A DNA stretch of 64,000 nucleotides from Escherichia coli (GTDB taxonomy: Bacteria > Pseudomonadota > Gammaproteobacteria > Enterobacterales > Enterobacteriaceae), in the NCBI RefSeq assembly GCF_050920415.1, contig NZ_CP169309.1. One strand, written 5' to 3'. Under the pieces are notes generated by a model that did not search any database, was not told the DNA's origin, and was given only the letters and a program-made list of their open reading frames with translations. Shown in pieces: positions 14,134-43,419 of the stretch. The first letter of the stretch is position 1, and each line of letters opens with the position of its first letter. Both the position numbers and the translations under genes were made by a program.

Positions 14134-15348
14134 ATGAAGATCGTAAAGGCTGAAGTTTTTGTTACCTGTCCGGGGCGTAATTTCGTCACATTAAAAATCA
14201 CCACTGAGGACGGTATTACGGGCCTTGGGGATGCCACCCTCAATGGACGTGAGCTTTCCGTGGCCTCTTATTTGCAGGATCACCTTTGTCCGCAGCTTAT
14301 TGGTCGCGATGCACAGCGTATCGAAGATATCTGGCAGTTTTTCTATAAAGGTGCTTACTGGCGTCGCGGTCCGGTGACGATGTCGGCCATTTCAGCGGTT
14401 GATATGGCGTTGTGGGATATTAAAGCCAAAGCTGCCAACATGCCGCTTTACCAGTTACTCGGCGGCGCGTCTCGTGAAGGGGTGATGGTTTATTGCCATA
14501 CCACCGGTCACAGTATTGATGAAGCTCTGGATGATTATGCCCGTCATCAGGAGCTGGGATTCAAAGCCATCCGCGTGCAGTGCGGAATCCCTGGTATGAA
14601 AACCACCTACGGCATGTCGAAAGGCAAAGGTCTGGCTTATGAACCCGCAACCAAAGGACAGTGGCCGGAAGAGCAGCTGTGGTCGACGGAGAAATACCTC
14701 GATTTCATGCCGAAATTGTTTGACGCGGTACGTAACAAGTTTGGTTTTAATGAACATTTGCTGCATGACATGCACCATCGCTTAACGCCTATTGAAGCGG
14801 CGCGCTTTGGTAAAAGCATTGAAGATTATCGCATGTTCTGGATGGAAGACCCGACGCCTGCGGAAAACCAGGAATGCTTCCGTCTCATTCGCCAACATAC
14901 CGTCACACCCATCGCGGTGGGTGAAGTCTTCAACAGCATCTGGGACTGCAAACAGCTGATTGAAGAACAACTTATCGACTATATCCGCACCACGCTGACT
15001 CACGCGGGGGGGATTACCGGTATGCGCCGGATTGCCGATTTTGCTTCGTTGTATCAGGTACGTACTGGCTCACACGGTCCTTCCGATTTGTCACCAGTCT
15101 GCATGGCTGCGGCGCTGCACTTTGATCTGTGGGTCCCCAATTTCGGTGTCCAGGAATACATGGGCTATTCCGAACAAATGCTCGAAGTCTTCCCGCACAA
15201 CTGGACTTTCGATAACGGCTATATGCATCCGGGAGACAAACCGGGTCTTGGCATCGAATTCGATGAAAAGCTGGCGGCGAAATATCCCTATGAACCTGCT
15301 TATCTGCCAGTCGCACGTCTGGAAGATGGCACGCTGTGGAACTGGTAA
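14134..15348 (+). CDS. rspA: starvation-sensing protein RspA (enolase-superfamily mannonate dehydratase-like)
   Basis: 404 aa from Met12 of ORF 14101..15348; recognised RspA sequence. Confidence 0.95.
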
Positions 15349-15359
15349 GGAGTAAGATA

Positions 15360-16379
15360 ATGAAAAGCATTTTAATTGAAAAACCGAATCAACTGGCAAT
15401 TATCGAACGCGAAATACCCACCCCGTCAGCGGGTGAAGTTCGAGTAAAAGTGAAACTTGCCGGAATTTGTGGTTCAGATAGCCATATTTATCGTGGGCAT
15501 AATCCTTTTGCGAAATATCCGCGCGTCATTGGACATGAATTCTTTGGCGTCATTGATGCAGTGGGTGAAGGCGTGGAAAGCGACAGAGTCGGTGAACGCG
15601 TTGCTGTCGATCCGGTGGTCAGCTGTGGGCATTGCTATCCGTGCTCTATAGGTAAGCCGAACGTTTGTACGACACTGGCTGTATTAGGTGTGCACGCTGA
15701 CGGTGGTTTCAGTGAATATGCCGTGGTGCCGGCAAAAAATGCGTGGAAAATTCCTGAAGCAGTGGCCGATCAATATGCGGTGATGATCGAACCTTTTACC
15801 ATTGCGGCTAACGTTACCGGTCATGGTCAACCGACTGAAAATGATACCGTTCTGGTTTACGGTGCAGGTCCAATCGGCCTGACGATCGTTCAGGTATTAA
15901 AAGGCGTCTATAACGTTAAGAATGTGATTGTTGCCGATCGCATTGATGAACGACTGGAAAAAGCGAAAGAGAGCGGGGCAGACTGGGCGATTAATAACAG
16001 CCAGACACCGCTTGGCGAGATTTTCGCTGAAAAAGGCATAAAGCCGACATTAATTATCGATGCGGCTTGTCATCCTTCAATCCTGAAAGAAGCCGTAACG
16101 CTGGCTTCTCCAGCGGCACGTATTGTATTGATGGGCTTCTCCAGTGAACCGTCTGCAGTGATTCAGCAAGGAATTACCGGAAAAGAACTCTCTATTTTCT
16201 CTTCACGCTTAAATGCAAATAAATTCCCGGTCGTTATCGACTGGTTAAGTAAAGGGTTAATTAAACCAGAAAAACTAATTACCCATACGTTTGATTTCCA
16301 GCATGTTGCTGATGCCATTAGTTTATTTGAACAGGATCAAAAGCATTGCTGCAAAGTCTTACTCACTTTTTCTGAATAA
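15360..16379 (+). CDS. rspB: starvation-sensing protein RspB (zinc-dependent alcohol dehydrogenase family)
   Basis: 339 aa from Met9 of ORF 15336..16379; GHE...CGxC zinc motifs and Rossmann GAGPIG. Confidence 0.95.
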   Translation: MKSILIEKPNQLAIIEREIPTPSAGEVRVKVKLAGICGSDSHIYRGHNPFAKYPRVIGHEFFGVIDAVGEGVESDRVGERVAVDPVVSCGHCYPCSIGKPNVCTTLAVLGVHADGGFSEYAVVPAKNAWKIPEAVADQYAVMIEPFTIAANVTGHGQPTENDTVLVYGAGPIGLTIVQVLKGVYNVKNVIVADRIDERLEKAKESGADWAINNSQTPLGEIFAEKGIKPTLIIDAACHPSILKEAVTLASPAARIVLMGFSSEPSAVIQQGITGKELSIFSSRLNANKFPVVIDWLSKGLIKPEKLITHTFDFQHVADAISLFEQDQKHCCKVLLTFSE

Positions 16380-16566: not shown

Positions 16567-17847
16567 TTAATTTTTCACCACCTCGTTTTGGGGCATGGTT
16601 GGGGCAAACTCGCTTAGCTGTGTATTTAACAGGGCTACCTGTGCATTATTGTTTTCAGACATCCATTTCCCGTATACCTGAAACACCATTTGCGCATCTG
16701 CATGTCCCATCTGGTTTGCTATGAATGCCGGGTTGGCACCGGCTGTCAACGACCAGCAGGCATAAGTATGTCTCGACTGATATGATTTGCGGTGGCGGAG
16801 GCCAGCGCGCTTTATCGCTGCGTCCCACATCTGCCTTATTGAGTCAACGGTAAAATGGTCACCATAATTTTTTACTCTCGCTGACACTTCAGGTTGAAAA
16901 ACAAAGGTGCATTTTTGTTTTTCTGTTCTGCCGAACTCTCTGAGGTGAACGTCAATAATATGTTCTTTGCTCAGCCTCGTTAGTGTCATCTGACTCCTGA
17001 GAGCGTCGATTGCAGGCTTGATAAGGTGAATTACCCGATTGGTACCAGCCTGTGTTTTCGGTACCGTAAAACGATCTTTTGCTAAATTTCTCCTGATCAT
17101 CATTGTTCCATTTTTCAGATCTATGTCCTCCCACCCAAGCGCACACAGTTCACCAGGGCGAATGCCTGTATAAACAGAAACACACCATAAATTTTTGGCC
17201 TGCTGATTTCTGCAGGCGTCGATAAGACGGATAAATTCCTCCCGTGAAAGAGGATCAGGAATGGTTCTTGATTCCTTTAATGGCGAGATCCCCTTAAACG
17301 GATTATCTGCCAGGTAACCGTTATCAACACCAAACTGGAACACGGCGTTAAGATTTGTCATGTAATTATTTACAGTTACAGCCGATCTCCCTGGTTGTGT
17401 AACAATATAGTTACTTTTGGGGATCTGGTATCCAGTCAGTAGCTCTTTACGAACCTCCAGTAATTTTTCTTTATTAATCGATGAGGCAAGATTTTTTTCA
17501 CCGATTATGCTCAGGATATTTTTGATGACGGCACGGTATGTGTTGAGTGATGCTTTGGCGACTTCAGTTTCTTTCAGTGCCAGAAATTTTTCAGCCAGTT
17601 CTTTTATGGTTAAATCTTGTCGGGCCTCACCAAATTTTTCCAGATTGCGTGAGGAGGGAAACTGTTTTGCATAGTCGAAAACACCAGTTTTTATTGCGTA
17701 ACAAACAGAGGAGCGTAGTTCACCTGCAACGCGCCTGTTTTTTGCTGTGTCAGGAACCCCCAGATTTTCCCTGACTCTTACGCCTTTATAAACAAACCAG
17801 ATACGTAATTTCCCTCCATGGTTTTCCACGCCTGTCGGATATTTCAT
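16567..17847 (-). CDS. int: phage integrase (tyrosine recombinase)
   Basis: ORF 16567..17862; start taken at second ATG (MKYPTG) preceded by purine-rich RBS; C-terminal catalytic domain with conserved R...H-x-x-R...Y; adjacent to att junction. Confidence 0.9.
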   Translation of the reverse strand: MKYPTGVENHGGKLRIWFVYKGVRVRENLGVPDTAKNRRVAGELRSSVCYAIKTGVFDYAKQFPSSRNLEKFGEARQDLTIKELAEKFLALKETEVAKASLNTYRAVIKNILSIIGEKNLASSINKEKLLEVRKELLTGYQIPKSNYIVTQPGRSAVTVNNYMTNLNAVFQFGVDNGYLADNPFKGISPLKESRTIPDPLSREEFIRLIDACRNQQAKNLWCVSVYTGIRPGELCALGWEDIDLKNGTMMIRRNLAKDRFTVPKTQAGTNRVIHLIKPAIDALRSQMTLTRLSKEHIIDVHLREFGRTEKQKCTFVFQPEVSARVKNYGDHFTVDSIRQMWDAAIKRAGLRHRKSYQSRHTYACWSLTAGANPAFIANQMGHADAQMVFQVYGKWMSENNNAQVALLNTQLSEFAPTMPQNEVVKN

Positions 17848-17881
17848 TTCAACTTCTCTCATTAGTTAGTGTGGCTTTTAG

Positions 17882-18133
17882 TCAAGTAAGATGACGTCTT
17901 GGTCTCGCTGATGCCTGGCGCTCAATCCAGCGATCAATTTCTTCCAGGTTGTAAAAGCATGGACTGTTATCCCATGGCATACCGTCATGAGCGACATGCT
18001 TATATTCCCTTCCTTCCATAAACGATTTTTCCCGGGCCTTTTTTAACGTACCTTTTTTTATTCCTTTCAGCGCAATTAACTGCTCTTCGGATACCCATTT
18101 GCCGGGAGAGACAATCATGATTACTTCGCTCAT
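17882..18133 (-). CDS. xis: excisionase-like small DNA-binding protein
   Basis: 83-aa ORF immediately upstream of int in the same orientation. Confidence 0.55.
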   Translation of the reverse strand: MSEVIMIVSPGKWVSEEQLIALKGIKKGTLKKAREKSFMEGREYKHVAHDGMPWDNSPCFYNLEEIDRWIERQASARPRRHLT

Positions 18134-18205: not shown

Positions 18206-20677
18206 TTAAGAATCAGCCTGACTCGGGATCAGTTTTTGCCAGATAACTGAAACGTATTTTGCCTGGTAACGGGCGTCATCAAGTGCATTATGGCGCTCAC
18301 CTTCGAATGGAATAGCCGTTCTGGCATCGAAGTCTATGGCTTTCCCCAGCTCAACGATTGTGCGTACATCGCGATCGTTGTAGTAACGCCACGGGCAGGG
18401 GATCCCCTGCCGTTCGTATGAACGGCGCAAAATCGTGTTGTCGAAGTTGGCTCCATTTCCCCAGACCTGAACAAAAAATTCACCGGAGTTTTCGTCGATA
18501 AATTCCCGCAATTGTAACAGTGCATCATCTAACGGGATTTCATCGGTCATAATGGCAGATTGCGCTTCGCGTGATTGCTTAAGCCACCATTTAATGGTGT
18601 CCCGATCAATGACTCCGCCAGCAGTTTCCAGATCGATAGTCTTACTAAATTCCGGTCCCATATCTCCGGTTTGCGGATCGAAAAATATTGCACCTATTGA
18701 GATAATCGGGGCATCAGGATTTTTTCCCATGGTTTCAAGGTCGATCATTAGATGGTCACACGTCCTGCTGGTGGATGTGATAACGTGATGACCGTTCACC
18801 GCAATTAAGGGATCTGCCGTCTCGCCAGTTTCATTATTGCTGGCGTGGTCCTGAGCGCTGCCAGCATTCTCCTTGTGTGGATGTTCAGCGCCTTCCATTT
18901 CCTCCGGATCATTTTCCTGAACTTCAACCTGATTCTCTTCATCGAATGTTTCTTGGTATGTTGCGTCGCCCATCACCGCACCACAATCAGGGCAGTTGCC
19001 GCCGCCGGTCTGACCGCATGCGGTGCAGACTTTTTCCGCTTCCTGTTGCGCTACTGGCTCAGGTTGTTTCGTTTCTGGCTCGTTTTGTAACGCATTTGGG
19101 CTGTTTTGTTCTGCTTTCTGGTCGTTCTGTTCCGTTTCTTGCTGGTTCTGATTCACTGAATCGCGGGTTTCAATCCCCTTCACCCATTTCGGATCATTCG
19201 GGTCGCTAATCCCTGCAACAAATTCACCACGTGATACAGCAAGCAACTTATCGGCGTCAGGCTGGCTGATATTGGCTGCCTGCATAATTTTGTTTACTTC
19301 GTCAGCGGTAACTTTTACCGGCTCTGGTTGTGCGGTCGTGTCAGATGCACCAGTATTTTGTTGTGAACCTGAGTATGTACCGTTTTTACGGGCAAAATAT
19401 TCTTCTTTCGTGATTTCAGTAGCCCCTGCAGTCAGCGCCTTATTCAGACCAGAAAGTTTGTTTGCGCGACCATATTTTTCGCCATCCTTGTCGGTGAAGA
19501 GGAAGTAGAACGGCCCCTCACGCTCTACAGATGGTTCGACTTCCACTTTGCATTCGGTTTTTTCGTTGTCCGGAATTGCCGTTTCCACTGCATCAGTTTC
19601 TGGTACTGGCGACGAGAGAGTATCAGTTGCGCTCTGATTTCTTCCTTCATCTTCAAACACGCCCTTTGTAGTCAGGTATTCAGTAATGTATTTGTTCAGT
19701 GTCACAGGGTCTTTGTGAATGTCGATCGGACGTTCACGGACAAGGCCAAAAATAGTCTGGCGGTCGTAGCGAAGGGCATCAGGCTGTTTGCGCATTGATG
19801 CCGAGATACGCTTCCAGTCTTCGCGGTCGTTGTCGATAACTTCATTTTTTGCCCAGCGATGGATGCTGCCGTCAATGTTTCCGGCATCCACATCACCAGG
19901 CCAGAGAGCGTAGGCCAGTTCGTCATCCAGTGTTTTCCATGTCTGCTTGTATTCGCGATGAGTGGCAGCAATGACCGGGCTGATTTTTCCTGTTGAATTG
20001 TCAGTGTACTGTTGATTGGCTCTGGCGCGGGCGAGATCAACAACAGACGTGTATTTTCCGGTTTCCTTGCGTTCACCTTCGCGACGTTTTTTCCAGATGC
20101 GCATCTCTGCCTGAATTTCGGGCCATTTAGCACCAGGAATACATTTATGCTTAACCCACCCAATGGCGTGCAACTTAAGCTCCGGATACATGGCGTTAAC
20201 TTCTGGCATTTTCATCAACGCTTCAACGATATGTCCGTCGAATGTTGCCATGTCTTCCTGCAACAATTCCTGTGCGCTAATAACCATATCAACGGTGATG
20301 TTTTCACATGTGTCGAACTTAACCAGGACCGCGTTCTGTACTTCAGGGGACAGCTTGTCAAAATTGACGTTCATCGGATCGGATTCTGGTTCGACCGGGA
20401 CAAAGGAAGCGCCTTCCTCATCCCAGCGGTTTTCCAGCATATATTCGGTATCCCAGGAGTCGATGGCAGGGCGGGGCATGCCGGGTTTATCCTCGCAGAC
20501 AAGAAATTTATAAGCGCAGTCCTGAGCAGCCGGATATTGCTCCAGGAATTGCCAGGTAAATTTGGCTCGGGCGCGACGTTCGTCGCCGGCTTCAATGGCA
20601 GTGGCTACAGCGACTGCACCTTCTTCCTTTATTGCCTGTTCGTCCGGAATGGCGGCGCAAATAAAGACTTTACTCAT
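18206..20677 (-). CDS. large prophage early protein with C-terminal DnaQ-like DEDDh 3'-5' exonuclease domain and CxxC zinc-ribbon
   Basis: 823-aa ORF; C-terminal motifs DLETMG, WGNGANFD, HNALDDA; CTACGQTGGGNCPDCG zinc-ribbon-like segment; acidic linker. Confidence 0.75.
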   Translation of the reverse strand: MSKVFICAAIPDEQAIKEEGAVAVATAIEAGDERRARAKFTWQFLEQYPAAQDCAYKFLVCEDKPGMPRPAIDSWDTEYMLENRWDEEGASFVPVEPESDPMNVNFDKLSPEVQNAVLVKFDTCENITVDMVISAQELLQEDMATFDGHIVEALMKMPEVNAMYPELKLHAIGWVKHKCIPGAKWPEIQAEMRIWKKRREGERKETGKYTSVVDLARARANQQYTDNSTGKISPVIAATHREYKQTWKTLDDELAYALWPGDVDAGNIDGSIHRWAKNEVIDNDREDWKRISASMRKQPDALRYDRQTIFGLVRERPIDIHKDPVTLNKYITEYLTTKGVFEDEGRNQSATDTLSSPVPETDAVETAIPDNEKTECKVEVEPSVEREGPFYFLFTDKDGEKYGRANKLSGLNKALTAGATEITKEEYFARKNGTYSGSQQNTGASDTTAQPEPVKVTADEVNKIMQAANISQPDADKLLAVSRGEFVAGISDPNDPKWVKGIETRDSVNQNQQETEQNDQKAEQNSPNALQNEPETKQPEPVAQQEAEKVCTACGQTGGGNCPDCGAVMGDATYQETFDEENQVEVQENDPEEMEGAEHPHKENAGSAQDHASNNETGETADPLIAVNGHHVITSTSRTCDHLMIDLETMGKNPDAPIISIGAIFFDPQTGDMGPEFSKTIDLETAGGVIDRDTIKWWLKQSREAQSAIMTDEIPLDDALLQLREFIDENSGEFFVQVWGNGANFDNTILRRSYERQGIPCPWRYYNDRDVRTIVELGKAIDFDARTAIPFEGERHNALDDARYQAKYVSVIWQKLIPSQADS

Positions 20678-20757: not shown

Positions 20758-20961
20758 TTACGGTGCTGTTTTAAGTCCTGCCGGGATTTCGTTATTGTCC
20801 ATGCGAATAACTTTCTCAACCGGATAACAGTTGCCGGGAATTTTCTGTTCCGCTGCGGCAGCCATGCATTCTTTCATTGAGTCATGTATACCAATAACAA
20901 GATCAACTGGCTCGCCCGTATTAAGAAAAACCGTCAGAACGAGTGCAAATGCTGTATTCAT
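20758..20961 (-). CDS. ydfD: YdfD-like small protein (lysis-associated protein of Qin-type prophages)
   Basis: 67 aa from MNTAFALVLTVFL within ORF 20758..21015; hydrophobic N-terminus; directly downstream of dicB as in Qin. Confidence 0.55.
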   Translation of the reverse strand: MNTAFALVLTVFLNTGEPVDLVIGIHDSMKECMAAAAEQKIPGNCYPVEKVIRMDNNEIPAGLKTAP

Positions 20962-21146
20962 TGCCAGTATCCTTTTTGCATCAGACGTAAACGGGCCAGC
21001 ATTGATACAATGCATATTTGATTTAATAGCTCCCGTTCGTGTTTTCTCTTATTAATGGCATCTTCAGTAAATACAGGGTTACTGATTCTGACACCAATTT
21101 CAAAACAACCTTCAGACGTATTAACGTTTGGTAATAACGTTTCCAT
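20958..21146 (-). CDS. dicB: cell division inhibitor DicB
   Basis: C-terminal 62 aa of ORF 20958..21242 (METLLPNVNTSEGCFEIGVRISNPVFTEDAINKRKHERELLNQICIVSMLARLRLMQKGYWQ) closely match the recalled K-12 DicB sequence. Confidence 0.85.
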   Translation of the reverse strand: METLLPNVNTSEGCFEIGVRISNPVFTEDAINKRKHERELLNQICIVSMLARLRLMQKGYWQ

Positions 21147-21334
21147 TATCGCGTCCTCAACAATGAATTTTGTGATACGGTGCCTGGTGCCTCCAGGTGA
21201 CGTTAACCAGTTAACAATTAACGCCGGATACAGAGAACCCACCCATAAGAACCAATACGGAAGTCAACTGGCCTTTTTAACTGTTCCGCGTGCGCTTAGC
21301 CGCATTCACCGCATCACAAAATTCACTTTAAAAA

Positions 21335-21387
21335 GGGCGGCAGAGCAGTCACGGAGTAAAACTGATACCGCCAAACGTCACCAGAAA
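21335..21387 (-). ncRNA. dicF: DicF small regulatory RNA (ftsZ-targeting sRNA)
   Basis: Minus-strand sequence TTTCTGGTGACGTTTGGCGGTATCAGTTTTACTCCGTGACTGCTCTGCCGCCC matches the 53-nt DicF followed by a T-run; about 190 bp upstream of dicB as in Qin. Confidence 0.8.
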
Positions 21388-21898
21388 ATTGATAACAGAG
21401 GGCGTTGCAGCGGGGTTGCCACTTAAGCGTATGGTCAACCTGACAACCCGGTGTCCTCAACGGGGAAGGAATAACCCCGCCATACTTACCGCCGCGCCAT
21501 TTCGCGGATTGCCACAACCGGAAGCGCACAGACGAAGATGTCAGTGGTACACAACAAAGGGAGGAATGACTTCGCCGTGCGCTTTCGCGTTATGCCCTGA
21601 CTTTTCAGGGATATATCCTTTCAGTAAACTGTTTGTGCCGGATTCTTATCCGTGTCCGGCGCACGACCACGCGCTGTCACGTGTGGTCTCCATTCTCAAC
21701 CAGTAACCTCAATGGAGGATAAAATTAAAATGGTCAGCAAACTAAATTAGACTCGCTGGAAGATTCATTATTAAACAGCGCGTTTAAATTATATTCTTGA
21801 ATGTTTTGGGGATAACCTTGCTGCTGAGGAAGGCTATCCAAACCATGTCGATGGTTTCGAAGCGATATATCTTTATCTATCCCGTAAACATGGATGGA

Positions 21899-22300
21899 CT
21901 ATTTCACAGTGTCGTTTAATGCCACTGGATGATATTCGCCTTGCTCTTTCGTTAGAGCTATCAGGGTGGCGACTCCCTGATGATGCAAAGATTGACGACC
22001 ATCATTCTCACGATGATATAAGTTGTTAAGTTCCAGTAGTTTGGCTTTTGCAATGGCCTCTACAGATTTCCAGAATTTGTGGGGGTCTGTACTCTCTTCC
22101 TGTTCGTCAGGAATGTTATTGTCCTCAACAGAAACAGAATACAGTCCGGTAAACGCATCGCGCACATTACGAGCCATATTATCAATGTCTTTTTTCGTTT
22201 CAGCTTCTAATGCAACTTCGTTCAGACGTTGACGAAGTGTATGTGCTGCAATTTCTTGGATTTCTTTTGGTAACTCTTTAAATTCCATAGTCAACCTCAT
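21899..22300 (-). CDS. hypothetical prophage early protein (pL operon)
   Basis: 133-aa ORF between the immunity region and dicF; no recognised motif. Confidence 0.45.
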   Translation of the reverse strand: MRLTMEFKELPKEIQEIAAHTLRQRLNEVALEAETKKDIDNMARNVRDAFTGLYSVSVEDNNIPDEQEESTDPHKFWKSVEAIAKAKLLELNNLYHRENDGRQSLHHQGVATLIALTKEQGEYHPVALNDTVK

Positions 22301-22530
22301 CAGTCAGTGTTTCTGGCTAACCAGCGATGCGCGCCAGTTTCGGTTTTAAACGTTTTGCTTTTGGTATATGTCATCGCGGTGAACGTACCGTCCTGGTTGG
22401 GGAACACGCCACATACCAGAGATTCGCTGTTGCCAAGATCGATAGTATCCATGCTGACCTCATTTCCCCTTAACGCCGGGGTGGCGGAACAAAAACCTGC
22501 TGCATAGTTAAAGTTGAACCCTGCCGTCAT
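22300..22530 (-). CDS. hypothetical prophage early protein (first gene of leftward operon)
   Basis: 76-aa ORF directly downstream of the putative pL/OL region. Confidence 0.4.
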   Translation of the reverse strand: MTAGFNFNYAAGFCSATPALRGNEVSMDTIDLGNSESLVCGVFPNQDGTFTAMTYTKSKTFKTETGAHRWLARNTD

Positions 22531-22620
22531 GTTCTTACGCCTCGGGCTGGCTACTTAACCCCTGACCACTGCCTGGTAACTCGAAGTATTGCCCTGCGTT
22601 CTGTGGGGCGGGGTGGTATA

Positions 22621-22650
22621 CTATAAAACTAAATCTATTTAGTTTTATAG
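22621..22650. promoter_or_regulatory. 30-bp near-perfect palindrome, candidate OL operator for the CI-like repressor (approximate coordinates)
   Basis: CTATAAAACTAAAT-CT-ATTTAGTTTTATAG with 14-bp arms; shares the TTTTAG/CTAAAA half-site with inverted repeats in the cI-cro intergenic region; preceded by TATACT. Confidence 0.4.
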
Positions 22651-22673
22651 TCAAGCGCGATCTAGATATATTT

Positions 22674-22697
22674 AAAAAAAGGTCGACAAAGCCGACC
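22674..22697 (-). terminator. rho-independent terminator downstream of the repressor gene (approximate)
   Basis: Minus-strand hairpin GGTCGGCTTTGTCGACC followed by a 7-T run, about 25 nt after the cI stop. Confidence 0.5.
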
Positions 22698-22721
22698 TCT
22701 GATTGAAAAACAAAGTGGAAG

Positions 22722-23366
22722 CTATAGGCTGAACTGCACACCTTTTGCTACAGCAACAATTTTACATTCAGGTGTCAGTAAGGACGATTGATAGCGAGGA
22801 TTGAGGGGGCTTAAATACACGAGTTTTCCGTCGATGACTAATTTTTTTATAGTCATAGATGGTTCGTTTGTAAGCGGATCTGGGACTATTACAGCGACGA
22901 TACTACCATTTTTATATTTTTCTCTAGGCCTCATGATCACTGTGGCACCAACCGGAATGCTTGGCGACCCTGATGGGTTGTGCATAGTGTCATCAGGCAT
23001 TGAAACGGCAAAATCCCCCTCCTTGACGTCAAAGAATGTGGTGATTCTGTCGGCATTTCCCATAGTTTTCTCTCCTTCTAAAATTAGGAAAGAAATTGCT
23101 TCCCCCCATGAAAGATAGGGGATTTGGGTGCCTGAATTGTTCTGCACAAGGGTAGGTTCAGTAGACGATACTCCATATAGGAGATAGGACTCAGTAGTTC
23201 CTAGTGCTTGGGCTAATTTACTAAGAGCTTTGCTACCGGGTTCGTTTAGGTCTTTCTCCCAGTACCCTATAGTTACCCCTGTTACGCCAGAAAGCTTGCC
23301 CAGTTCGACTTGGGTCAGTCCCTTGTCTTTTCTGAGTCTCTTAAGCCTAATGCCAAGGCTTTCCAT
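22722..23366 (-). CDS. cI: CI-like prophage repressor (HTH_XRE plus S24 LexA-like autopeptidase)
   Basis: 214 aa from third ATG (RBS GGGAG); N-terminal HTH (LTQVELGKLSGVTGVTIGYWE); C-terminal S24 fold with Ser in GDFAVSM and Lys in TIKKL; divergent to cro-like gene. Confidence 0.9.
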   Translation of the reverse strand: MESLGIRLKRLRKDKGLTQVELGKLSGVTGVTIGYWEKDLNEPGSKALSKLAQALGTTESYLLYGVSSTEPTLVQNNSGTQIPYLSWGEAISFLILEGEKTMGNADRITTFFDVKEGDFAVSMPDDTMHNPSGSPSIPVGATVIMRPREKYKNGSIVAVIVPDPLTNEPSMTIKKLVIDGKLVYLSPLNPRYQSSLLTPECKIVAVAKGVQFSL

Positions 23367-23372
23367 CATCAT

Positions 23373-23464
23373 CTCCCGTGAATTGAATATAAATTATTTT
23401 AGATTGCATTGACCTAAAAAAAATTATCCTTTAATCTAAAAATACTTAGTTTTAGGAGGGTGAA
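23373..23464. promoter_or_regulatory. divergent pRM/pR promoter-operator region (OR)
   Basis: TTGACC-17 nt-TAATCT promoter reading into cro; inverted repeats TTTTAG...CTAAAA and CTAAAA-N8-TTTTAG; AGGAGGG RBS before cro ATG. Confidence 0.6.
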
Positions 23465-24114: not shown

Positions 24115-24964
24115 AAGCACGGTGTTCGGGGTTTTTTATGAGCAGCAAGCTTCATGGTCTTGTCTGGGAAGGGTGCGCCTTCACCGGCATGATCTTATCC
24201 AGGGTGGCAGTAATGGCTCGCCTTGCAGACTACAGCAATGACGAAGGTGTGTCATGGCCTGCAGTGGAGACCATTCGTCGTCAGATTGGGGCAAAGAGTG
24301 AATCAACGGTTAAAGCGGCGATAGCGGAACTGGAAAAGAACGGCTGGCTGACGAAGGAGGAGCGTAAGGTCGGTGGGCGTAATGAAAGCAATATCTACCG
24401 CCTTAATGTGGAAAAACTCGAAGCAGCAGCTGAGGCGGCGCGTGAGGCATATAAACCGAAAAGAAAAATTAGCCCGGCAAAAAATGACCCGTTAACAGTT
24501 GACCAGTCAAATATTGCCCCCTCAACGGTTGACCCGTCAAATTTTGATGGATCAACCGTTGGTAAAAAACAGCCGGTTAGGGGGGCGATGGTTGGCCCCG
24601 ATCCGTCAGTATTAAAACCTGATCCGTCAGATAAAAGATCTTTTCGTCCGGAAGCTTCGCAACCGGACCCGCAGACGGCTGAACAGGATTTTTTAACCCG
24701 ACATCCTGATGCGGTTGTGTTTAGTGCAAAAAAACGTCAGTGGGGAACTCAGGAGGATTTGGCATGCGCACAGTGGATCTGGGGGCGAATCGTGAGTCTT
24801 TACGAACAGGCCGCCAGCGATGATGGCGAGATCACCCGACCGAAAGAACCCAACTGGACAGCATGGGCCAATGACGTGCGCATAATGCGGATGCTGGATG
24901 GCAGAACTCACAGACAAATCTGTGAACCGCCCCGGGTTTCCTGGAGAGTGTTTTATCTGTGAAC

Positions 24965-25831
24965 TCAGGCTGCCAGATCATTGTTTCCGATGGAAGCATA
25001 ATAAGCTTTTTCTGCTTCTGCCGGAGGAGTATGGCCCAGCCTTCCCAGCAATCGTCGATTGTTATACCAGTCCACCCACGTGAGTGTGGCCAGTTCCACT
25101 TCTGCACGGTTTTTCCAGCTCTTACGGTGTATTACCTCCGCTTTGTAAAGACCATTGATGCTCTCAGCCATCGCGTTGTCATACGAGTCGCCTGTACTCC
25201 CTGTTGATGCCAGCAGTTTTGCTTCTTTTAGTCGCTCCGTATAGGCCAGTGACACATACTGAGAGCCTTTATCGCTGTGATGGATGGTGCCAGACGGACG
25301 ACGGGCCCACAACGCCTGCTCCAGCGCATCCAGCACGAATGTCGTTTCCATAGACGATGAGACCCGCCACCCCACGATGTATCCGGCAAACACATCAATG
25401 ATGAACGCCACATAGACGAAGCCCTGCCATGTGCTGACGTAAGTAAAATCAGCCACCCACAGCTGGTCAGGACGTTCTGCCACGAACTGACGGTTTACGC
25501 GGTCACCTGTGGCAACGGTTTTCCGGCTGACGGTAGTGCGGACCTTTTTACCCCGGAGAACACCGGCAAGTCCCATAACCGCCATGAGGCGCGCCACTGT
25601 ACATCTGGCCACCCTGATTCCTTCCCGTAACAACTGACGCCAGACTTTACGCACACCGTACACCTGATGATTTTCATCGTATACGCGCTGTATCTCTCTC
25701 TTCAGCCAGTCATCGCGCTGCGCACGGGCACTGCGTTTATCAGGATGATGCCGCTGCTGCTGACAATGGTAATACGTTGACGGGGCAATATGCAGTTCAC
25801 TGCATACCGGTCCGACCCCCGTACTGCTCAC
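24965..25831 (-). CDS. IS3-family transposase OrfB (DDE integrase domain)
   Basis: 288-aa ORF with DDE catalytic region; expressed as OrfAB by -1 frameshift. Confidence 0.85.
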   Translation of the reverse strand: MSSTGVGPVCSELHIAPSTYYHCQQQRHHPDKRSARAQRDDWLKREIQRVYDENHQVYGVRKVWRQLLREGIRVARCTVARLMAVMGLAGVLRGKKVRTTVSRKTVATGDRVNRQFVAERPDQLWVADFTYVSTWQGFVYVAFIIDVFAGYIVGWRVSSSMETTFVLDALEQALWARRPSGTIHHSDKGSQYVSLAYTERLKEAKLLASTGSTGDSYDNAMAESINGLYKAEVIHRKSWKNRAEVELATLTWVDWYNNRRLLGRLGHTPPAEAEKAYYASIGNNDLAA

Positions 25832-25852
25832 GCAGCTTATCCAGCAGTGGCA

Positions 25853-26179
25853 TTATTTTTTCCAGAGGCGGTCGAACTCCGCCTTCGCAAAATAAGCGGA
25901 AGCCTGGCGAAGGATATCGTTACTGCGGCGCAGTTCACGATTTTCACGTTCCAGCTCTTTCAGACGCTGACGTTCAGCGGTGGTGAGCCCACCATCACCG
26001 CTCCCGGTATCCCTCTCATGCTGGCGAACCCAGACACGCAGAGTCTCTGGCGTACAGCCAATCTTTGGAGCAATGGAACAAATTGCCGCCCATTGTGAGT
26101 CATATTCGCCCTGACTTTCCAGAACCATACGAACTGCGCGTTGACGGACTTCGGGGGAAAAACGAGTATTTTTAGTCAT
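25853..26179 (-). CDS. IS3-family transposase OrfA (HTH and leucine zipper)
   Basis: 108 aa, [19 protein letters not shown]...; recognised IS629-type OrfA. Confidence 0.85.
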
Positions 26180-26454
26180 CCTGTTTACCTCTTTCTCAGG
26201 AAGTTTAGTCTCCAGGATTTCCGGGGCGGTTCACTGCGAAATGTTTGGTCGGGTACAGCGGGATCCATTCTGGGTAAAAAACATCATGAGCCCGTCAAAA
26301 CTTCGCGATAAATGGGATGAGCTGGTTATCCGTCTGGGGCGTTCGCCTGTACAGCGTTGTGTGAATCATATTTCTGAACCTGACACCGAAATTCCACCAG
26401 GGTTCAGGGGGTAGGTATTGATTTCAGATCATGAGGTAATTTTCAGGAGGACTT

Positions 26455-28746: not shown

Positions 28747-29379
28747 CTATTTTTTGGCAATTAGTGCATGCATCGCCATTTCATGACCTTTTCTGCGAAG
28801 TTTTTTCACACGGGGCTTGAGCCTAGTGAAAGAACTTGGGCTAATTGTCGACTCAGCTTCAACTATATCATTGCGGGGAGCACCCGTTTTAGCATCTTCA
28901 TAGCGGATAAGTATTTTAAACGTGCCCTCATCAACTCCGACACCTTGCAAGTGATGAAGTTTAGATGAAACAGCACCGATTAAATAATCATGAATTCCTT
29001 GCAGGCCCGTTTTACCGATTGGTGAATAGGTATGCAACATATTTGCACCTACAGGAAGGAACTGGCGAAAGTCAGGAACATGCATCTTGTTAACTTCAAC
29101 AGAAGTGTATGCTTTCATGTCAAAAGAAACTCCAGGTTTCCGTGCATTGACTTCTAGCCATTGAGGCAAATCGAGAATATATTTGCTCTCAGCAGTTACT
29201 TCCAGTTTCTTCCTAGACGATAATGTCACGTCCATTACCTGAGCCATATCAGCCATAGAAAGCTCAGCGGCCTTCCGGTTGATGGCTTGTACCCGCTCGC
29301 TCACGTTAGGTCCGAATGCATCGAACAACGAAATTTCAGCAGCTGGTTTAATGGCTTCAGTTTTAACAGACATATACAC
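28747..29379 (-). CDS. hypothetical protein, partner of zeta-like kinase (cassette B, gene 2)
   Basis: 210-aa ORF about 19 nt downstream of the kinase gene on the same strand; no recognisable motif. Confidence 0.5.
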   Translation of the reverse strand: MYMSVKTEAIKPAAEISLFDAFGPNVSERVQAINRKAAELSMADMAQVMDVTLSSRKKLEVTAESKYILDLPQWLEVNARKPGVSFDMKAYTSVEVNKMHVPDFRQFLPVGANMLHTYSPIGKTGLQGIHDYLIGAVSSKLHHLQGVGVDEGTFKILIRYEDAKTGAPRNDIVEAESTISPSSFTRLKPRVKKLRRKGHEMAMHALIAKK

Positions 29380-29398: not shown

Positions 29399-30097
29399 TT
29401 ATACACCTAAATGCGCTAGATCGCTAACGTCTGAATATGGGCAGCTATGGGAGGTAGTCCAGTTTTCAAGGGTCACGTTAGGAGTATAGTCGACCACGAA
29501 CTGACCATCATTTTCAGGATCTTCCCGTCGATGATAAACATTGAGTGTAAATAGGCCTGCATATTTCGCGAGCATATGTTCAATGGTCTCTCTGCTCTTG
29601 AAAAAGTTCGCTTTAAGAACCTCTAACGGAACCTTACGAGAGCGGGCTTGGGCAAAAACCCACGCGTAAGCCGGATCAAAATAGACGTAATTCAGTGCTA
29701 CCTGATAACCAGCCTTCAGGGCCAGATCAAAGTTTCTCTCCGCAATACCTATACTGGAGAAAGTAGAGTCCATAACAATGGGATAGCCTTCAGATAGCGC
29801 TTTTTTGTAGATAAAATCGACCATTCTGGAGGCAGGTCTCTGATAGTCCACAGAGTTCTCTTCATTGTAGTAGGGGAACCACCAGCGAAAATCATCAGCA
29901 TCAATTCGAACAATGTTTGTGATGCCATGTTGTTCTAAAAGACGATTTAAGAGCTCGGTTTTACCTGCAGCAGGCGAACCAGCCATAAACAGGACGTGCT
30001 TGGCATTGGCATTTTTGTTTGCTGTTACGTAACTATAAACGTAAGGGCGAATTGCCTCACCAAACTCAGGCAGTATGGTTTCAAGTTCTTTTTTCAT
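29399..30097 (-). CDS. zeta-toxin-like P-loop kinase (cassette B, gene 1)
   Basis: 232-aa ORF; Walker A FMAGSPAAGKTEL followed about 20 residues later by RIDADDFR, the arrangement seen in zeta/PezT/AvrRxo1-type kinases; low-GC context. Confidence 0.6.
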   Translation of the reverse strand: MKKELETILPEFGEAIRPYVYSYVTANKNANAKHVLFMAGSPAAGKTELLNRLLEQHGITNIVRIDADDFRWWFPYYNEENSVDYQRPASRMVDFIYKKALSEGYPIVMDSTFSSIGIAERNFDLALKAGYQVALNYVYFDPAYAWVFAQARSRKVPLEVLKANFFKSRETIEHMLAKYAGLFTLNVYHRREDPENDGQFVVDYTPNVTLENWTTSHSCPYSDVSDLAHLGV

Positions 30098-30907: not shown

Positions 30908-31122
30908 TTGATTTTATATTGGCGAGGTGACGGGAGTTAAGTAGGATTGCTGCGGGTGCTTGAGGCTATCTGTCTCAGGCATGAATACCAACGGCAGATA
31001 GAGAAAAGCCCCAGTTAACATTACGCGTCCTGCAAGACGCCTAACATTAATCTGAGGCCATATCTATGACTTGCACACGTAGGTTAGCCTCTTACGTGCC
31101 GAAAGGCAAGGAGAAGCAGGCT

Positions 31123-31353
31123 ATGAAGCAGCATAAGGCGATGTTAATCGCCCTGATTGTCATCTGTTTAACTGTCATTGTGACGGCACTGGTAACGAGG
31201 AAAGATCTCTGTGAGGTACGAATCCGAACCAGCCAAACGGAGGTCGCTGTCTTCACAGCTTACGAACCTGAGGAGTTAGAGACCAGGCGAGGGAGAAATC
31301 CCTCGCCACCTCTGATGAGTCAGGCATCCTCAATGCACCCACACTTAACTTGA
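31123..31353 (+). CDS. hokD: Hok/Gef-family type I toxin (HokD/RelF-like) with C-terminal extension
   Basis: MKQHKAMLIALIVICLTVIVTALVTRKDLCEVRIRTSQTEVAVFTAYEPEE matches the Hok family; the expected stop after EPEE is TTA here and the ORF continues 25 codons; GC-rich hairpin GGCGAGGGAGAAATCCCTCGCC within the extension; in frame with an upstream mok-like ORF from 31066. Confidence 0.8.
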   Translation: MKQHKAMLIALIVICLTVIVTALVTRKDLCEVRIRTSQTEVAVFTAYEPEELETRRGRNPSPPLMSQASSMHPHLT

Positions 31354-39562: not shown

Positions 39563-39726
39563 TTCAAAAAACGAAAGAACGGAGGTACGTATGTACGCAC
39601 TGAAAAAGATTACGGTAACTGAAGATGGTCGTCAGTAGACTGGCCCCCTGAATCTCCAGACAACCAGTATCACTTAAATAAGTGATAGTCTTAATACTAG
39701 TTTTTAGACTAGTCATTGGAGAACAG

Positions 39727-40092
39727 ATGATTGATGTCTTAGGGCCGGAGAAACGCAGACGGCGTACCACACAGGAAAAGATCGCAATTGTTCAGCAGAG
39801 CTTTGAACCGGGGATGACGGTCTCCCTCGTTGCCCGGCAACATGGTGTAGCAGCCAGCCAGTTATTTCTCTGGCGTAAGCAATACCAGGAAGGAAGTCTT
39901 ACTGCTGTCGCCGCCGGAGAACAGGTTGTTCCTGCCTCTGAACTTGCTGCCGCCATGAAGCAGATTAAAGAACTCCAGCGCCTGCTCGGCAAGAAAACGA
40001 TGGAAAATGAACTCCTCAAAGAAGCCGTTGAATATGGACGGGCAAAAAAGTGGATAGCGCACGCGCCCTTATTGCCCGGGGATGGGGAGTAA
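39727..40092 (+). CDS. insC: IS2 transposase InsC (OrfA)
   Basis: 121 aa from [18 protein letters not shown]...; recognised IS2 InsC. Confidence 0.9.
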
Positions 40093-40955
40093 GCTTAGTC
40101 AGCCGTTGTCTCCGGGTGTCGCGTGCGCAGTTGCACGTCATTCTCAGACGAACCGATGACTGGATGGATGGCCGCCGCAGTCGTCACACTGATGATACGG
40201 ATGTGCTTCTCCGTATACACCATGTTATCGGAGAGCTGCCCACGTATGGTTATCGTCGGGTATGGGCGCTGCTTCGCAGACAGGCAGAACTTGATGGTAT
40301 GCCTGCAATCAATGCCAAACGTGTTTACCGGATCATGCGCCAGAATGCGCTGTTGCTTGAGCGAAAACCTGCTGTACCGCCATCGAAACGGGCACATACA
40401 GGCAGAGTGGCCGTGAAAGAAAGCAATCAGCGATGGTGCTCTGACGGGTTCGAGTTCTGCTGTGATAACGGAGAGAGACTGCGTGTCACGTTCGCGCTGG
40501 ACTGCTGTGATCGTGAGGCACTGCACTGGGCGGTGACTACTGGCGGCTTCAACAGTGAAACAGTACAGGACGTCATGCTGGGAGCGGTGGAACGCCGCTT
40601 CGGCAACGATCTTCCGTCGTCTCCAGTGGAGTGGCTGACGGATAATGGTTCATGCTACCGGGCTAATGAAACACGCCAGTTCGCCCGGATGTTGGGACTT
40701 GAACCGAAGAACACGGCGGTGCGGAGTCCGGAGAGTAACGGAATAGCAGAGAGCTTCGTGAAAACGATAAAGCGTGACTACATCAGTATCATGCCCAAAC
40801 CAGACGGGTTAACGGCAGCAAAGAACCTTGCAGAGGCGTTCGAGCATTATAACGAATGGCATCCGCATAGTGCGCTGGGTTATCGCTCGCCACGGGAATA
40901 TCTGCGGCAGCGGGCTTGTAATGGGTTAAGTGATAACAGATGTCTGGAAATATAG
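40050..40955 (+). CDS. insD: IS2 transposase InsD (OrfB, DDE)
   Basis: 301-aa ORF; recognised IS2 InsD; overlaps insC for -1 frameshift fusion. Confidence 0.9.
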
Positions 40956-41236
40956 GGGCAAATCCAGTCAGGTTGAGGAAGTGCATGTCCTGGGGGGATA
41001 TGTATCGTATGGAGTTTTACCCGCGTAATACCCATCTGGCAGCAAAAATTGAGTATTGCCGGAACGGGAATATTTCATGTTTGCAGGTAGAGAAAACGGA
41101 TGAGGCTTATATCACTACGCTGAACGGCGATACGATGTCAGCGCCAATGATATAAGACAGTAATTCACCATTTGGATTGTCCGCTCCACCCAACATGTTG
41201 TTTCCTTAAGGTTCCTACACCACAAAGGGAACACTC

Positions 41237-43202
<1,966 letters not shown>

Positions 43203-43419
43203 TGACCAATAGCGGACATTAAAAATGGCGAAAAACGGCCAATAATCTTGGCGTTGACAACGATGCGTTGCATCTGTCGCGGCGACAGTAAAGCCCGGAA
43301 TGAAATGGCCAGATGTCGTACTCATACCAGTGAATAACAAGTAAAACCCCGGCGGCTGAAACAACCAAGGGGTTAACAGTGTAAATAAAACTGCCCATAT
43401 TGATGGGCAGCGCATGTAA

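Follow-up and report, generated by a model that had tools for sequence, protein, structure and literature searches.

The DNA analysed here, a 64,000-nt stretch of the Escherichia coli chromosome (the window), contains a DicF small RNA gene next to a dicB homologue. The question raised by this locus is whether the two belong to an operon that could still function, or to the silent remains of a prophage, and for which of its activities the operon might be kept. Scanning the whole window with Rfam at the gathering threshold gave three matches, one of which was DicF (RF00039). The match (21386..21335, minus strand) covered positions 1-52 of the 52-position model; its score was 76.7 bits (E = 3.6e-15), and the gathering score is 48. 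The K-12 Qin region (locus L001) was then used as the reference for alignment to the window. The 53-nt DicF gene (21387..21335, minus strand) was identical to the K-12 sequence (L001 3781-3833) at 53 of 53 bases, which together with the bit score rules out a chance match or a degenerate DicF. The gene thus matches the experimentally defined 53-nt RNA, including its 3′ ftsZ/pykA-pairing and 5′ xylR-pairing regions. A preliminary description of this DNA had reported the DicF sequence as essentially unchanged, and had proposed a search for disabling changes in the ftsZ-pairing region; the exact alignment agrees with the report and the search found none. The ftsZ-pairing region is therefore unchanged.

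The same alignment bears on whether this RNA could be a DicF-like variant with different targets rather than true DicF. Many alternative hairpin-terminators are found elsewhere behind the same upstream leader, including hybrids that combine the DicF 5′ seed with another loop, and a sub-threshold DicF-like RNA (41 bits) is present in the Rac-SA53 prophage. As the copy in the window does not differ by a single base from the K-12 DicF on which experiments were done, exact alignment refutes the variant reading, and we give it next to no probability.

DicF of K-12 represses ftsZ by pairing with its ribosome-binding region. It represses xylR and pykA as well, and works through both of its ends: the 3′ region pairs with ftsZ and pykA, and the 5′ region with xylR (PMC5069750). 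In folding predictions, the 3′ hairpin of the window DicF formed at -15.9 kcal/mol and was followed by UUUUU, a 3′ end of the intrinsic-terminator or Hfq-binding type. The hairpin and U-run, which extend down to about 21330, are predicted to act as an intrinsic terminator. A duplex between the window DicF and E. coli ftsZ was predicted to span the Shine-Dalgarno/AUG region with an energy of -38.5 kcal/mol. This energy is not discriminating, since 33 of 500 shuffled DicF sequences paired at least as well. As the duplex-energy test is uninformative, the argument that this RNA targets ftsZ rests on its identity to the tested K-12 RNA.

The dicB gene (20958..21146, minus strand) encodes a protein of 62 amino acids starting at an ATG at 21146. 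A longer frame starting with GTG (20958..21242, 94 amino acids) was also listed; homology to DicB begins at the ATG at 21146. The product matched Pfam PF05358 at 130.8 bits (cut-off 27) and NCBIfam NF049927 at 133 bits (cut-off 100), over residues 1-62 of 62. It is identical to K-12 DicB at 55 of 62 residues, the changes being K2E, T20R, Q36H, K43Q, P57Q, C60Y and A61W, so that three of the seven fall within the last six residues. The 188 nt that separate 21335 from 21146 agree with the earlier statement that a DicB homologue lies about 190 bp from DicF. This spacer (21147..21334, minus strand) forms a structured 5′ leader of dicB and is 88% identical to its K-12 counterpart, with only two mismatches in the first 60 nt 3′ of DicF. 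A match of the spacer to Rfam STnc100 (35.5 bits, E = 8e-6) fell below the gathering score of 47.

Directly after dicB, a ydfD-like gene (20758..20961, minus strand) encodes a 67-amino-acid DUF1482 protein that scored 81 bits with Pfam PF07358 (cut-off 25) and 126 bits with PHROG 1092. Its start codon overlaps the dicB stop codon as ATGA. The preliminary description had correctly placed a YdfD-like gene after dicB; the interval that it assigned to the module, 20958-21387, comprises exactly dicF, the spacer and dicB, and leaves the ydfD-like gene just outside. The YdfD-like protein is identical to K-12 YdfD at 45 of 63 residues (about 71%). Because of this divergence, and of the seven substitutions in DicB, the activities of the two proteins are deduced from those of their K-12 homologues.

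Conservation was strongest in DicF and the leader before it. The 142 nt immediately 5′ of DicF (21388..21529, minus strand), which correspond to the 5′ part of the ~190-nt pre-DicF, contained two mismatches relative to K-12. In this ungapped comparison identity collapsed further upstream. Leader and DicF together thus differ from K-12 at two positions in 195 nt, and leader, DicF and the following 60 nt at four in 255 nt. At the DNA level, dicB is about 94% and ydfD about 79% identical to K-12.

Earlier work on K-12 has been confirmed on three points: RNase III sets the 5′ end of the ~190-nt DicF, RNase E gives the 53-nt form, and DicF has no internal promoter (Ragunathan et al. 2023, PMC10448788). 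The K-12 RNase III cut lies at 813/814 nt from the transcription start (PMC10448788). With a K-12 start site that we estimated ourselves, we infer that this cut maps to about leader position 10/11, or about 21520/21519 in the window. At its 5′ end, the leader contributes ~17 nt to the 3′ arm of a long imperfect stem (21513..21594, minus strand), within which the RNase III site is predicted. Minimum free energy folding predicted the same stem of about 20 bp, with differing apical loops, for four divergent copies (window, K-12, phage Tritos and O157:H7). Since the conserved block starts inside this stem and the mapped cut falls about 10 nt into the block, the conserved leader is most simply the body of pre-DicF.

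Two other causes of leader conservation were considered. Plus-strand open reading frames at 21055-21426 and 21389-21706 overlap the leader, raising the possibility of a protein-coding cause. PGAP annotates neither in identical DNA, and conservation ends abruptly at the stem boundary rather than at an ORF boundary, which counts against a coding explanation. BLAST matches within phage tRNA clusters had suggested a tRNA or tRNA-like element 5′ of DicF. ARAGORN detected no tRNA anywhere in the window, and no Rfam family matched the leader at E <= 1, so this candidate was rejected. The matches are explained by P1-type elements, which carry the leader and the spacer flanking tRNA genes.

On the minus strand, the genes surrounding pre-DicF are arranged in the order cI, promoter/operator, ydfA-like gene, 129/133-aa ORF, pre-DicF, dicB, ydfD-like gene, 823-aa exonuclease gene, xis and int. 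This order bears out the earlier assignment of the module to a leftward early operon. Just past the cI stop codon lies a terminator-like hairpin (22678..22700, minus strand), with a 10-bp stem followed by TTTTTAAATAT, which is a pattern match from a consensus scan only. A pL/dicBp-type promoter is predicted at 22620..22654 (minus strand), with a -35 hexamer TTGACT (22654-22649), a 17-nt spacer and a -10 hexamer TAGTTT (22631-22626). When the dicA-ydfA region was aligned, these hexamers were in register with TTGACC/TAATCT of K-12 dicBp, and the sequence between them differed. The -10 hexamer is weak, and a generic promoter scan did not report a leftward promoter at 22620..22654. A perfect 15+15-nt palindrome (22620-22651), whose inverted repeat is 100% complementary, overlaps the predicted promoter, and the cI-cro intergenic region contains a related copy (23433-23454). 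Such a pair is the pattern expected of OL and OR operators for one repressor; from the sequence we infer promoter and operator function.

The ydfA-like gene (22300..22452, minus strand) encodes a 50-amino-acid DUF1391 protein (Pfam PF07151, 94.8 bits) that is identical to K-12 YdfA at 43 of 50 residues, and PGAP has the same CDS in identical DNA. The 129/133-aa ORF (21899..22300, minus strand) occupies the place of K-12 ydfB/ydfC and matches a PHROG of unknown function (PHROG 1363, 132.9 bits). In identical DNA it is the PGAP hypothetical protein WP_000394567.1, and a homologue is found at the same position in an O157:H7 copy. An untranslated stretch of about 510 nt follows this ORF and ends in DicF. 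Downstream of the ydfD-like gene, the exonuclease gene (18206..20677, minus strand) is full-length at 823 amino acids, with a Pfam Rv2179c-like 3′-5′ exoribonuclease domain (226.5 bits) and a PHROG 2082 match over residues 1-822 of 823. It is followed by xis (17882-18133, minus strand), as annotated by PGAP in identical DNA, and by int (16567-17862, minus strand), which carries Pfam Phage_integrase and Arm-DNA-bind_2 domains and has the same PGAP support. The int gene adjoins the host gene rspB (15336-16379, plus strand).

The repressor gene (22722..23372, minus strand) encodes a CI-type protein of 216 amino acids, with Pfam matches to HTH_3 (47.3 bits) and Peptidase_S24 (41.8 bits, cut-off 23.3). 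In matches to PDB sequences, the N-terminal HTH resembled P22 C2 and the C-terminal domain resembled that of lambda CI. Residues were compared by BLASTP against lambda CI and by a MAFFT alignment with homologues, lambda CI and P22 C2, the lambda CI and P22 C2 sequences being entered by hand. The S24 fold following an HTH is that of LexA/CI-type self-cleaving repressors, and the general-base lysine pair is conserved at Lys176/177. Thr129 (DDTM) aligned with the nucleophilic serine of the G-x-S-M motif, which reads GDSM or GNSM in lambda CI, P22 C2 and more distant homologues. Ala92-Ile93 aligned with Ala-Gly, where self-cleaving repressors have an Ala-Gly or Cys-Gly cleavage site, in a linker where the alignment is less certain than those of the domains. 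The threonine and a non-glycine residue at the cleavage site are common to the nearer homologues, from E. coli, Salmonella, Yersinia, Symbiopectobacterium and Arsenophonus. At the cleavage-site position near homologues have A-I, A-M, A-T or S-I; distant ones have QAG, together with a canonical GDSM.

The repressor may thus not be RecA-cleavable. Because of Thr129 and Ala92-Ile93, SOS-triggered self-cleavage, and hence simple 'induction' of the prophage, cannot be assumed. The full CI repressor with S24 domain of the preliminary description was found at the level of domains only, the canonical serine and Ala-Gly being absent. The Thr-for-Ser, Ala-Ile variant bears on how the operon is induced.

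Taken with what is known of K-12, the region is very probably a dicBF operon that looks functional and forms the 'kil-region' module of a lambdoid prophage of the Qin type. The identity or near-identity of the sequences allows most steps of the mechanism set out below to be transferred from K-12. In the lysogen, the CI-type repressor would bind the palindromic operator over the leftward early promoter and keep the operon off. Derepression would give a polycistronic RNA running through the ydfA-like gene, the 129-aa ORF and the ~510-nt untranslated stretch. RNase III, as shown in K-12, would then cut in the long stem, which is conserved here, to yield the ~190-nt pre-DicF. RNase E would cut at the AU-rich junction ..AUCAAU/UUUCUGG.. 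to release the 53-nt DicF, with its own hairpin-terminator as the 3′ end, again a step shown in K-12. By analogy, DicF with Hfq would pair with the ribosome-binding region of ftsZ and block FtsZ synthesis, and would probably repress xylR, pykA and manX as it does in K-12.

Transcripts reading through the DicF terminator would encode DicB. In K-12, DicB binds MinC and recruits it to septal ZipA, which leads to filamentation, and also blocks ManYZ-dependent phage DNA entry (PMC6832061). The homologue in the window would likewise be expected to bring MinC to ZipA at midcell, where Z rings would dissolve, and might additionally block ManYZ-dependent entry of phage DNA. The same read-through transcripts would give the YdfD-like protein, whose K-12 homologue has been reported as a lysis protein that inhibits IspG (PMC8835842); a similar lytic activity may be expected here. 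Beyond the ydfD-like gene, exonuclease, xis and int are read in the same direction. The predicted net effect is that derepression of the prophage stops the host cell from dividing, as Kil does in lambda from the corresponding map position.

The operon was next compared with that of K-12 Qin (ydfABC-dicF-dicB-ydfDE). The two prophages occupy the same site by rspB, their int genes are 96% identical, and both have the order repressor, promoter, ydfA, pre-DicF, dicB, ydfD, exonuclease, int. The int-rspB junction is 96% identical to K-12 intQ-rspB over 2008 nt, and the window therefore contains a fuller prophage at the Qin site. K-12 DicA is an HTH-only protein of 135 amino acids, whereas the repressor here has 216 amino acids and an S24-like C-terminal domain. 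As the operator sequences differ, the immunity type differs from that of K-12 Qin. In addition, the 129-aa ORF replaces ydfB and ydfC. The exonuclease, xis and int genes are intact and late genes are present, in contrast to K-12, where ydfE is a partial exonuclease pseudogene truncated by IS2.

The lambda-type late genes claimed for this prophage were found at the domain level, namely Q antiterminator, gpA-type terminase, gpE-type capsid and gpJ-type tail tip. In near-identical DNA, PGAP also annotates holins and a GH108 endolysin. The prophage has int, xis, repressor, cro, Q, holins, endolysin, terminase, capsid and J, and its far end lies beyond the window. With its complete dicBF operon, full-length repressor, intact exonuclease, xis and int, and late genes, this prophage gives a picture of the K-12 relic before its decay.

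The prophage is nevertheless not intact, as three IS elements interrupt it. Insertions were defined by comparison with two genomes carrying the same prophage (L006 and L002). An IS629-like element of the IS3 family (24927-26233, 1.3 kb), flanked by a 3-bp CTG duplication, splits an O-like replication gene, leaving 274 of 320 amino acids. After the endolysin gene come IS2 (39636-40966) and, reaching to about 43.26 kb, an IS21-family element that L006 also has.

These insertions, one of them in the replication gene, together with a hok-like gene that PGAP marks as a pseudogene in identical DNA, would be expected of a silent relic. On this explanation the prophage is defective, and its operon is never meaningfully expressed, has no present role and persists because repression makes it harmless. 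The K-12 operon is indeed described as tightly repressed under laboratory conditions (PMC10448788). The same study also describes accumulation of DicF in stationary phase and firing of the promoter in a subpopulation of cells, which speaks against complete silence. Moreover, every part of the operon is undamaged, from the promoter and operator through the processing stem and the terminator to each ORF as far as int. DicF and its leader, with their two mismatches in 195 nt, are far more conserved than neighbouring coding DNA (about 80% identity in ydfD), which argues for selection. Sister genomes carry the same prophage without an IS in the replication gene, so its decay is recent. We therefore regard a silent relic as improbable, and retain the functional-looking operon as the preferred reading.

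The module is not confined to this strain. The 1.2-kb module matched 4741 of 5426 complete E. coli genomes, of which 3115 carried at least 80% of it, and the places per genome numbered two at the median and ten at most. It also occurs in isolated temperate phages, such as Tritos, in which DicF, dicB and ydfD are annotated between the CI repressor and exonuclease, xis and int. Occurrence of dicBF in several prophage contexts, with multiple copies in O157:H7, has been reported (Balasubramanian et al. 2016, PMC5069750). The prophages of EHEC O157:H7 and the coliphages Tritos, mEp460_ev081, vB_Eco-640R1 and PPompW carry the same module in complete or inducible lambdoid genomes, although their copies have 84-89% nucleotide identity to the one in the window. 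In O157 the 129-aa ORF is also present, but DicF differs at 2 of 52 BLAST-aligned positions and dicB is only about 73% identical at the DNA level. The module in the window is real and complete, and its presence in most E. coli genomes makes it ordinary. It reveals nothing new on DicF or DicB, and its arrangement has already been described.

Retention in so many genomes, often in several copies, also fits a role in anti-phage defence, in which DicB blocks ManYZ and DicF represses manX, and filamentation is a side effect. K-12 DicB confers about 100-fold resistance to lambda and other ManYZ-dependent phages, and requires MinC to do so (PMC6832061). Against defence as the main selected function, the module lies at the kil position of an early lytic operon. 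Lambda and Rac have small inhibitors of division of their own, Kil and KilR, whose genes take the same map position in the leftward early operon and are switched on by derepression. Kil of lambda prevents FtsZ from assembling by way of ZipA (PMC3961180). The Kil and KilR proteins are unrelated to DicB, lambda has no sRNA partner, and Rac-SA53 has only its sub-threshold DicF-like hairpin. A homologue of the dicF-dicB spacer nevertheless lies 5′ of both kilR of Rac-SA53 and kil of phage pPE4. That other phages alternate kilR or kil at this position behind a homologous 5′ leader suggests that the ancestral role was arrest of host division in lytic growth. The two roles can coexist. Defence as the main selected function is thus possible, but we consider it the less probable account.

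The pre-DicF leader was also found apart from DicF. Stretches of about 95-125 nt of leader, at 78-93% identity and with no DicF behind them, were present in two lambdoid phages (cdtI and 2H10), phage pPE4, P1, P7 and P1-like plasmids. Scanning viral contigs for a 27-nt core pattern gave 126 full-length leader copies, 97 of them distinct. The leader was followed by canonical DicF in 61 copies, by a cdtI-type hairpin in 24, by a P1-type hairpin in 19 and by others in 22; each hairpin ended in a U-run. Among the last group were hairpins of the Rac and pPE4 types, as well as hybrids in which the DicF seed is joined to a different loop.

A consensus fold of the leader contained 22 pairs, in which 98.7% of cells were paired, compared with 36-61% in slid controls. 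Double changes were found in only two of the 22 pairs, both only in P1/P7-type sequences, and strong covariation proof of the structure was therefore not obtained. The modelled consensus structure is plausible, not proven. Homology to the put antiterminator RNAs of HK022 was examined with an nhmmer profile of 27 leaders at maximum sensitivity. In the HK022 interval from int to the replication genes (21.0-32.5 kb), which includes the early promoters, only matches of 13-25 nt with E > 1 were obtained, which gives no support for homology.

We tentatively suggest, as a reading with a modest chance of being correct, that the ~140-nt leader is a self-standing structured RNA module of lambdoid early-left operons and the P1/P7 ban operons. 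On this reading it would be more than a precursor. Behind it would come an exchangeable cassette, made up of 'seed plus hairpin-terminator' and having DicF as one allele; the leader could set the balance between stopping and read-through at the terminator, or serve as a scaffold for sRNA processing or stability. In such an arrangement the leader may always lie just 3′ of a repressor-controlled early promoter and just 5′ of the exchangeable cassette. If so, it would balance sRNA output against expression of dicB or kil, exo, xis and int, or of the P1 tRNAs and ban. A modular leader held in common with P1 would make it a point of interest for these systems.

The P1/P7 ban operon contains about 95 nt of the pre-DicF leader at 79-83% identity, immediately 3′ of an early promoter under repressor control and ahead of a hairpin-terminator. 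The ban leader differs from the one in the window in having no DicF seed or loop behind it, and in being followed by tRNA genes, tci and ban rather than by dicB. The dicF-dicB spacer is a second module, with a homologue 5′ of kilR (Rac-SA53) and kil (pPE4) and 3′ of the tRNAs in P1 and P7. In P1, the C1-controlled Pban promoters immediately precede the leader, for which the GenBank record already has the label 'dicF-like region'.

The 142-nt leader 5′ of the 53-nt DicF (window 21388-21529, minus strand) is a conserved module, and is covered by no Rfam family. The module was also found without DicF: further lambdoid phages and the leader of the P1/P7 ban operon have it 5′ of hairpin-terminators that differ from DicF. 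DicF was present in 61 of the 126 leader copies on viral contigs, and other cargos in the remaining 65. Copies were located at 2501-2595 in the P1 locus (L007), at 2501-2623 in the cdtI locus (L008) and at 2501-2597 in locus L004.

The dicF-dicB spacer (21147-21334, minus strand) matches the Rfam family STnc100 with 35.5 bits, below the gathering score of 47. Homologues of the spacer are found at 1508-1658 in the Rac-SA53 locus (L014) and at 1765-1923 in locus L009. The homologous element sits 5′ of kilR/kil in Rac-type phages, and 3′ of tRNA genes in P1/P7. The spacer element looks like a 5′ leader common to unrelated division-inhibitor genes.

DicF was also observed in the T4-like Aeromonas phage AP1 (Straboviridae; MT713136, 249906-250152, equivalent to L003 2501-2747), where it is identical at 52 of 52 positions and scores 72.5 bits with Rfam. 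The dicF-dicB spacer is present alongside it at 89% identity; leader and dicB are both absent, and tRNA-Met and tRNA-Glu genes lie 1.3-2.2 kb away on either side. The sRNA cassette may have been transferred horizontally on its own, or this copy may be an artefact of assembly or host DNA.

Between ydfA and the pre-DicF leader, the window carries an ORF of 129/133 amino acids (21899-22300, minus strand; PHROG 1363) in the place taken by ydfB/ydfC in K-12; one O157:H7 copy is arranged as in the window. In the CI-type repressor (22722-23372, minus strand), the position of the S24 nucleophile serine is occupied by Thr129 (DDTM versus GDSM) and that of the Ala-Gly cleavage site by Ala92-Ile93, while the lysine pair is retained. 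Both changes are conserved across a subclade from E. coli, Salmonella, Yersinia, Symbiopectobacterium and Arsenophonus, and homologues further off have the canonical residues.

The O-like replication initiator gene (24138-24962) is interrupted by an IS629-like element of the IS3 family (24927-26233), which is flanked on both sides by a 3-bp CTG duplication and contains an ALIL frameshift pseudoknot (25781-25898; Rfam, 114 bits). The otherwise near-identical prophages L002 and L006 both lack this element. Just 3′ of the endolysin gene, an IS21-family element (about 40967-43259; istA-like 41237-42283, istB 42405-43202) adjoins IS2 (39636-40966), which has a 5-bp overlap at its junction and, over the 706 nt at its right-hand end, shares 99.6% identity with the partial IS2 of the K-12 Qin locus. 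L006 contains the IS21-family element without IS2, and L002 contains neither.

A sok antitoxin RNA (30954-31128, plus strand; RF01794, 108.1 bits) lies beside a hok-like gene that PGAP annotates, in identical DNA (L006 26810-26962), as a pseudogene incomplete at its C-terminus; the pair, a type I toxin-antitoxin locus, occupies the place of hokD in K-12 Qin. On the opposite strand, between the replication genes and Q, are a zeta-toxin family gene (29399-30097, minus) and an adjacent 210-aa ORF (28747-29379, minus), both named by PGAP from identical DNA, which may represent toxin-antitoxin or defence cargo.
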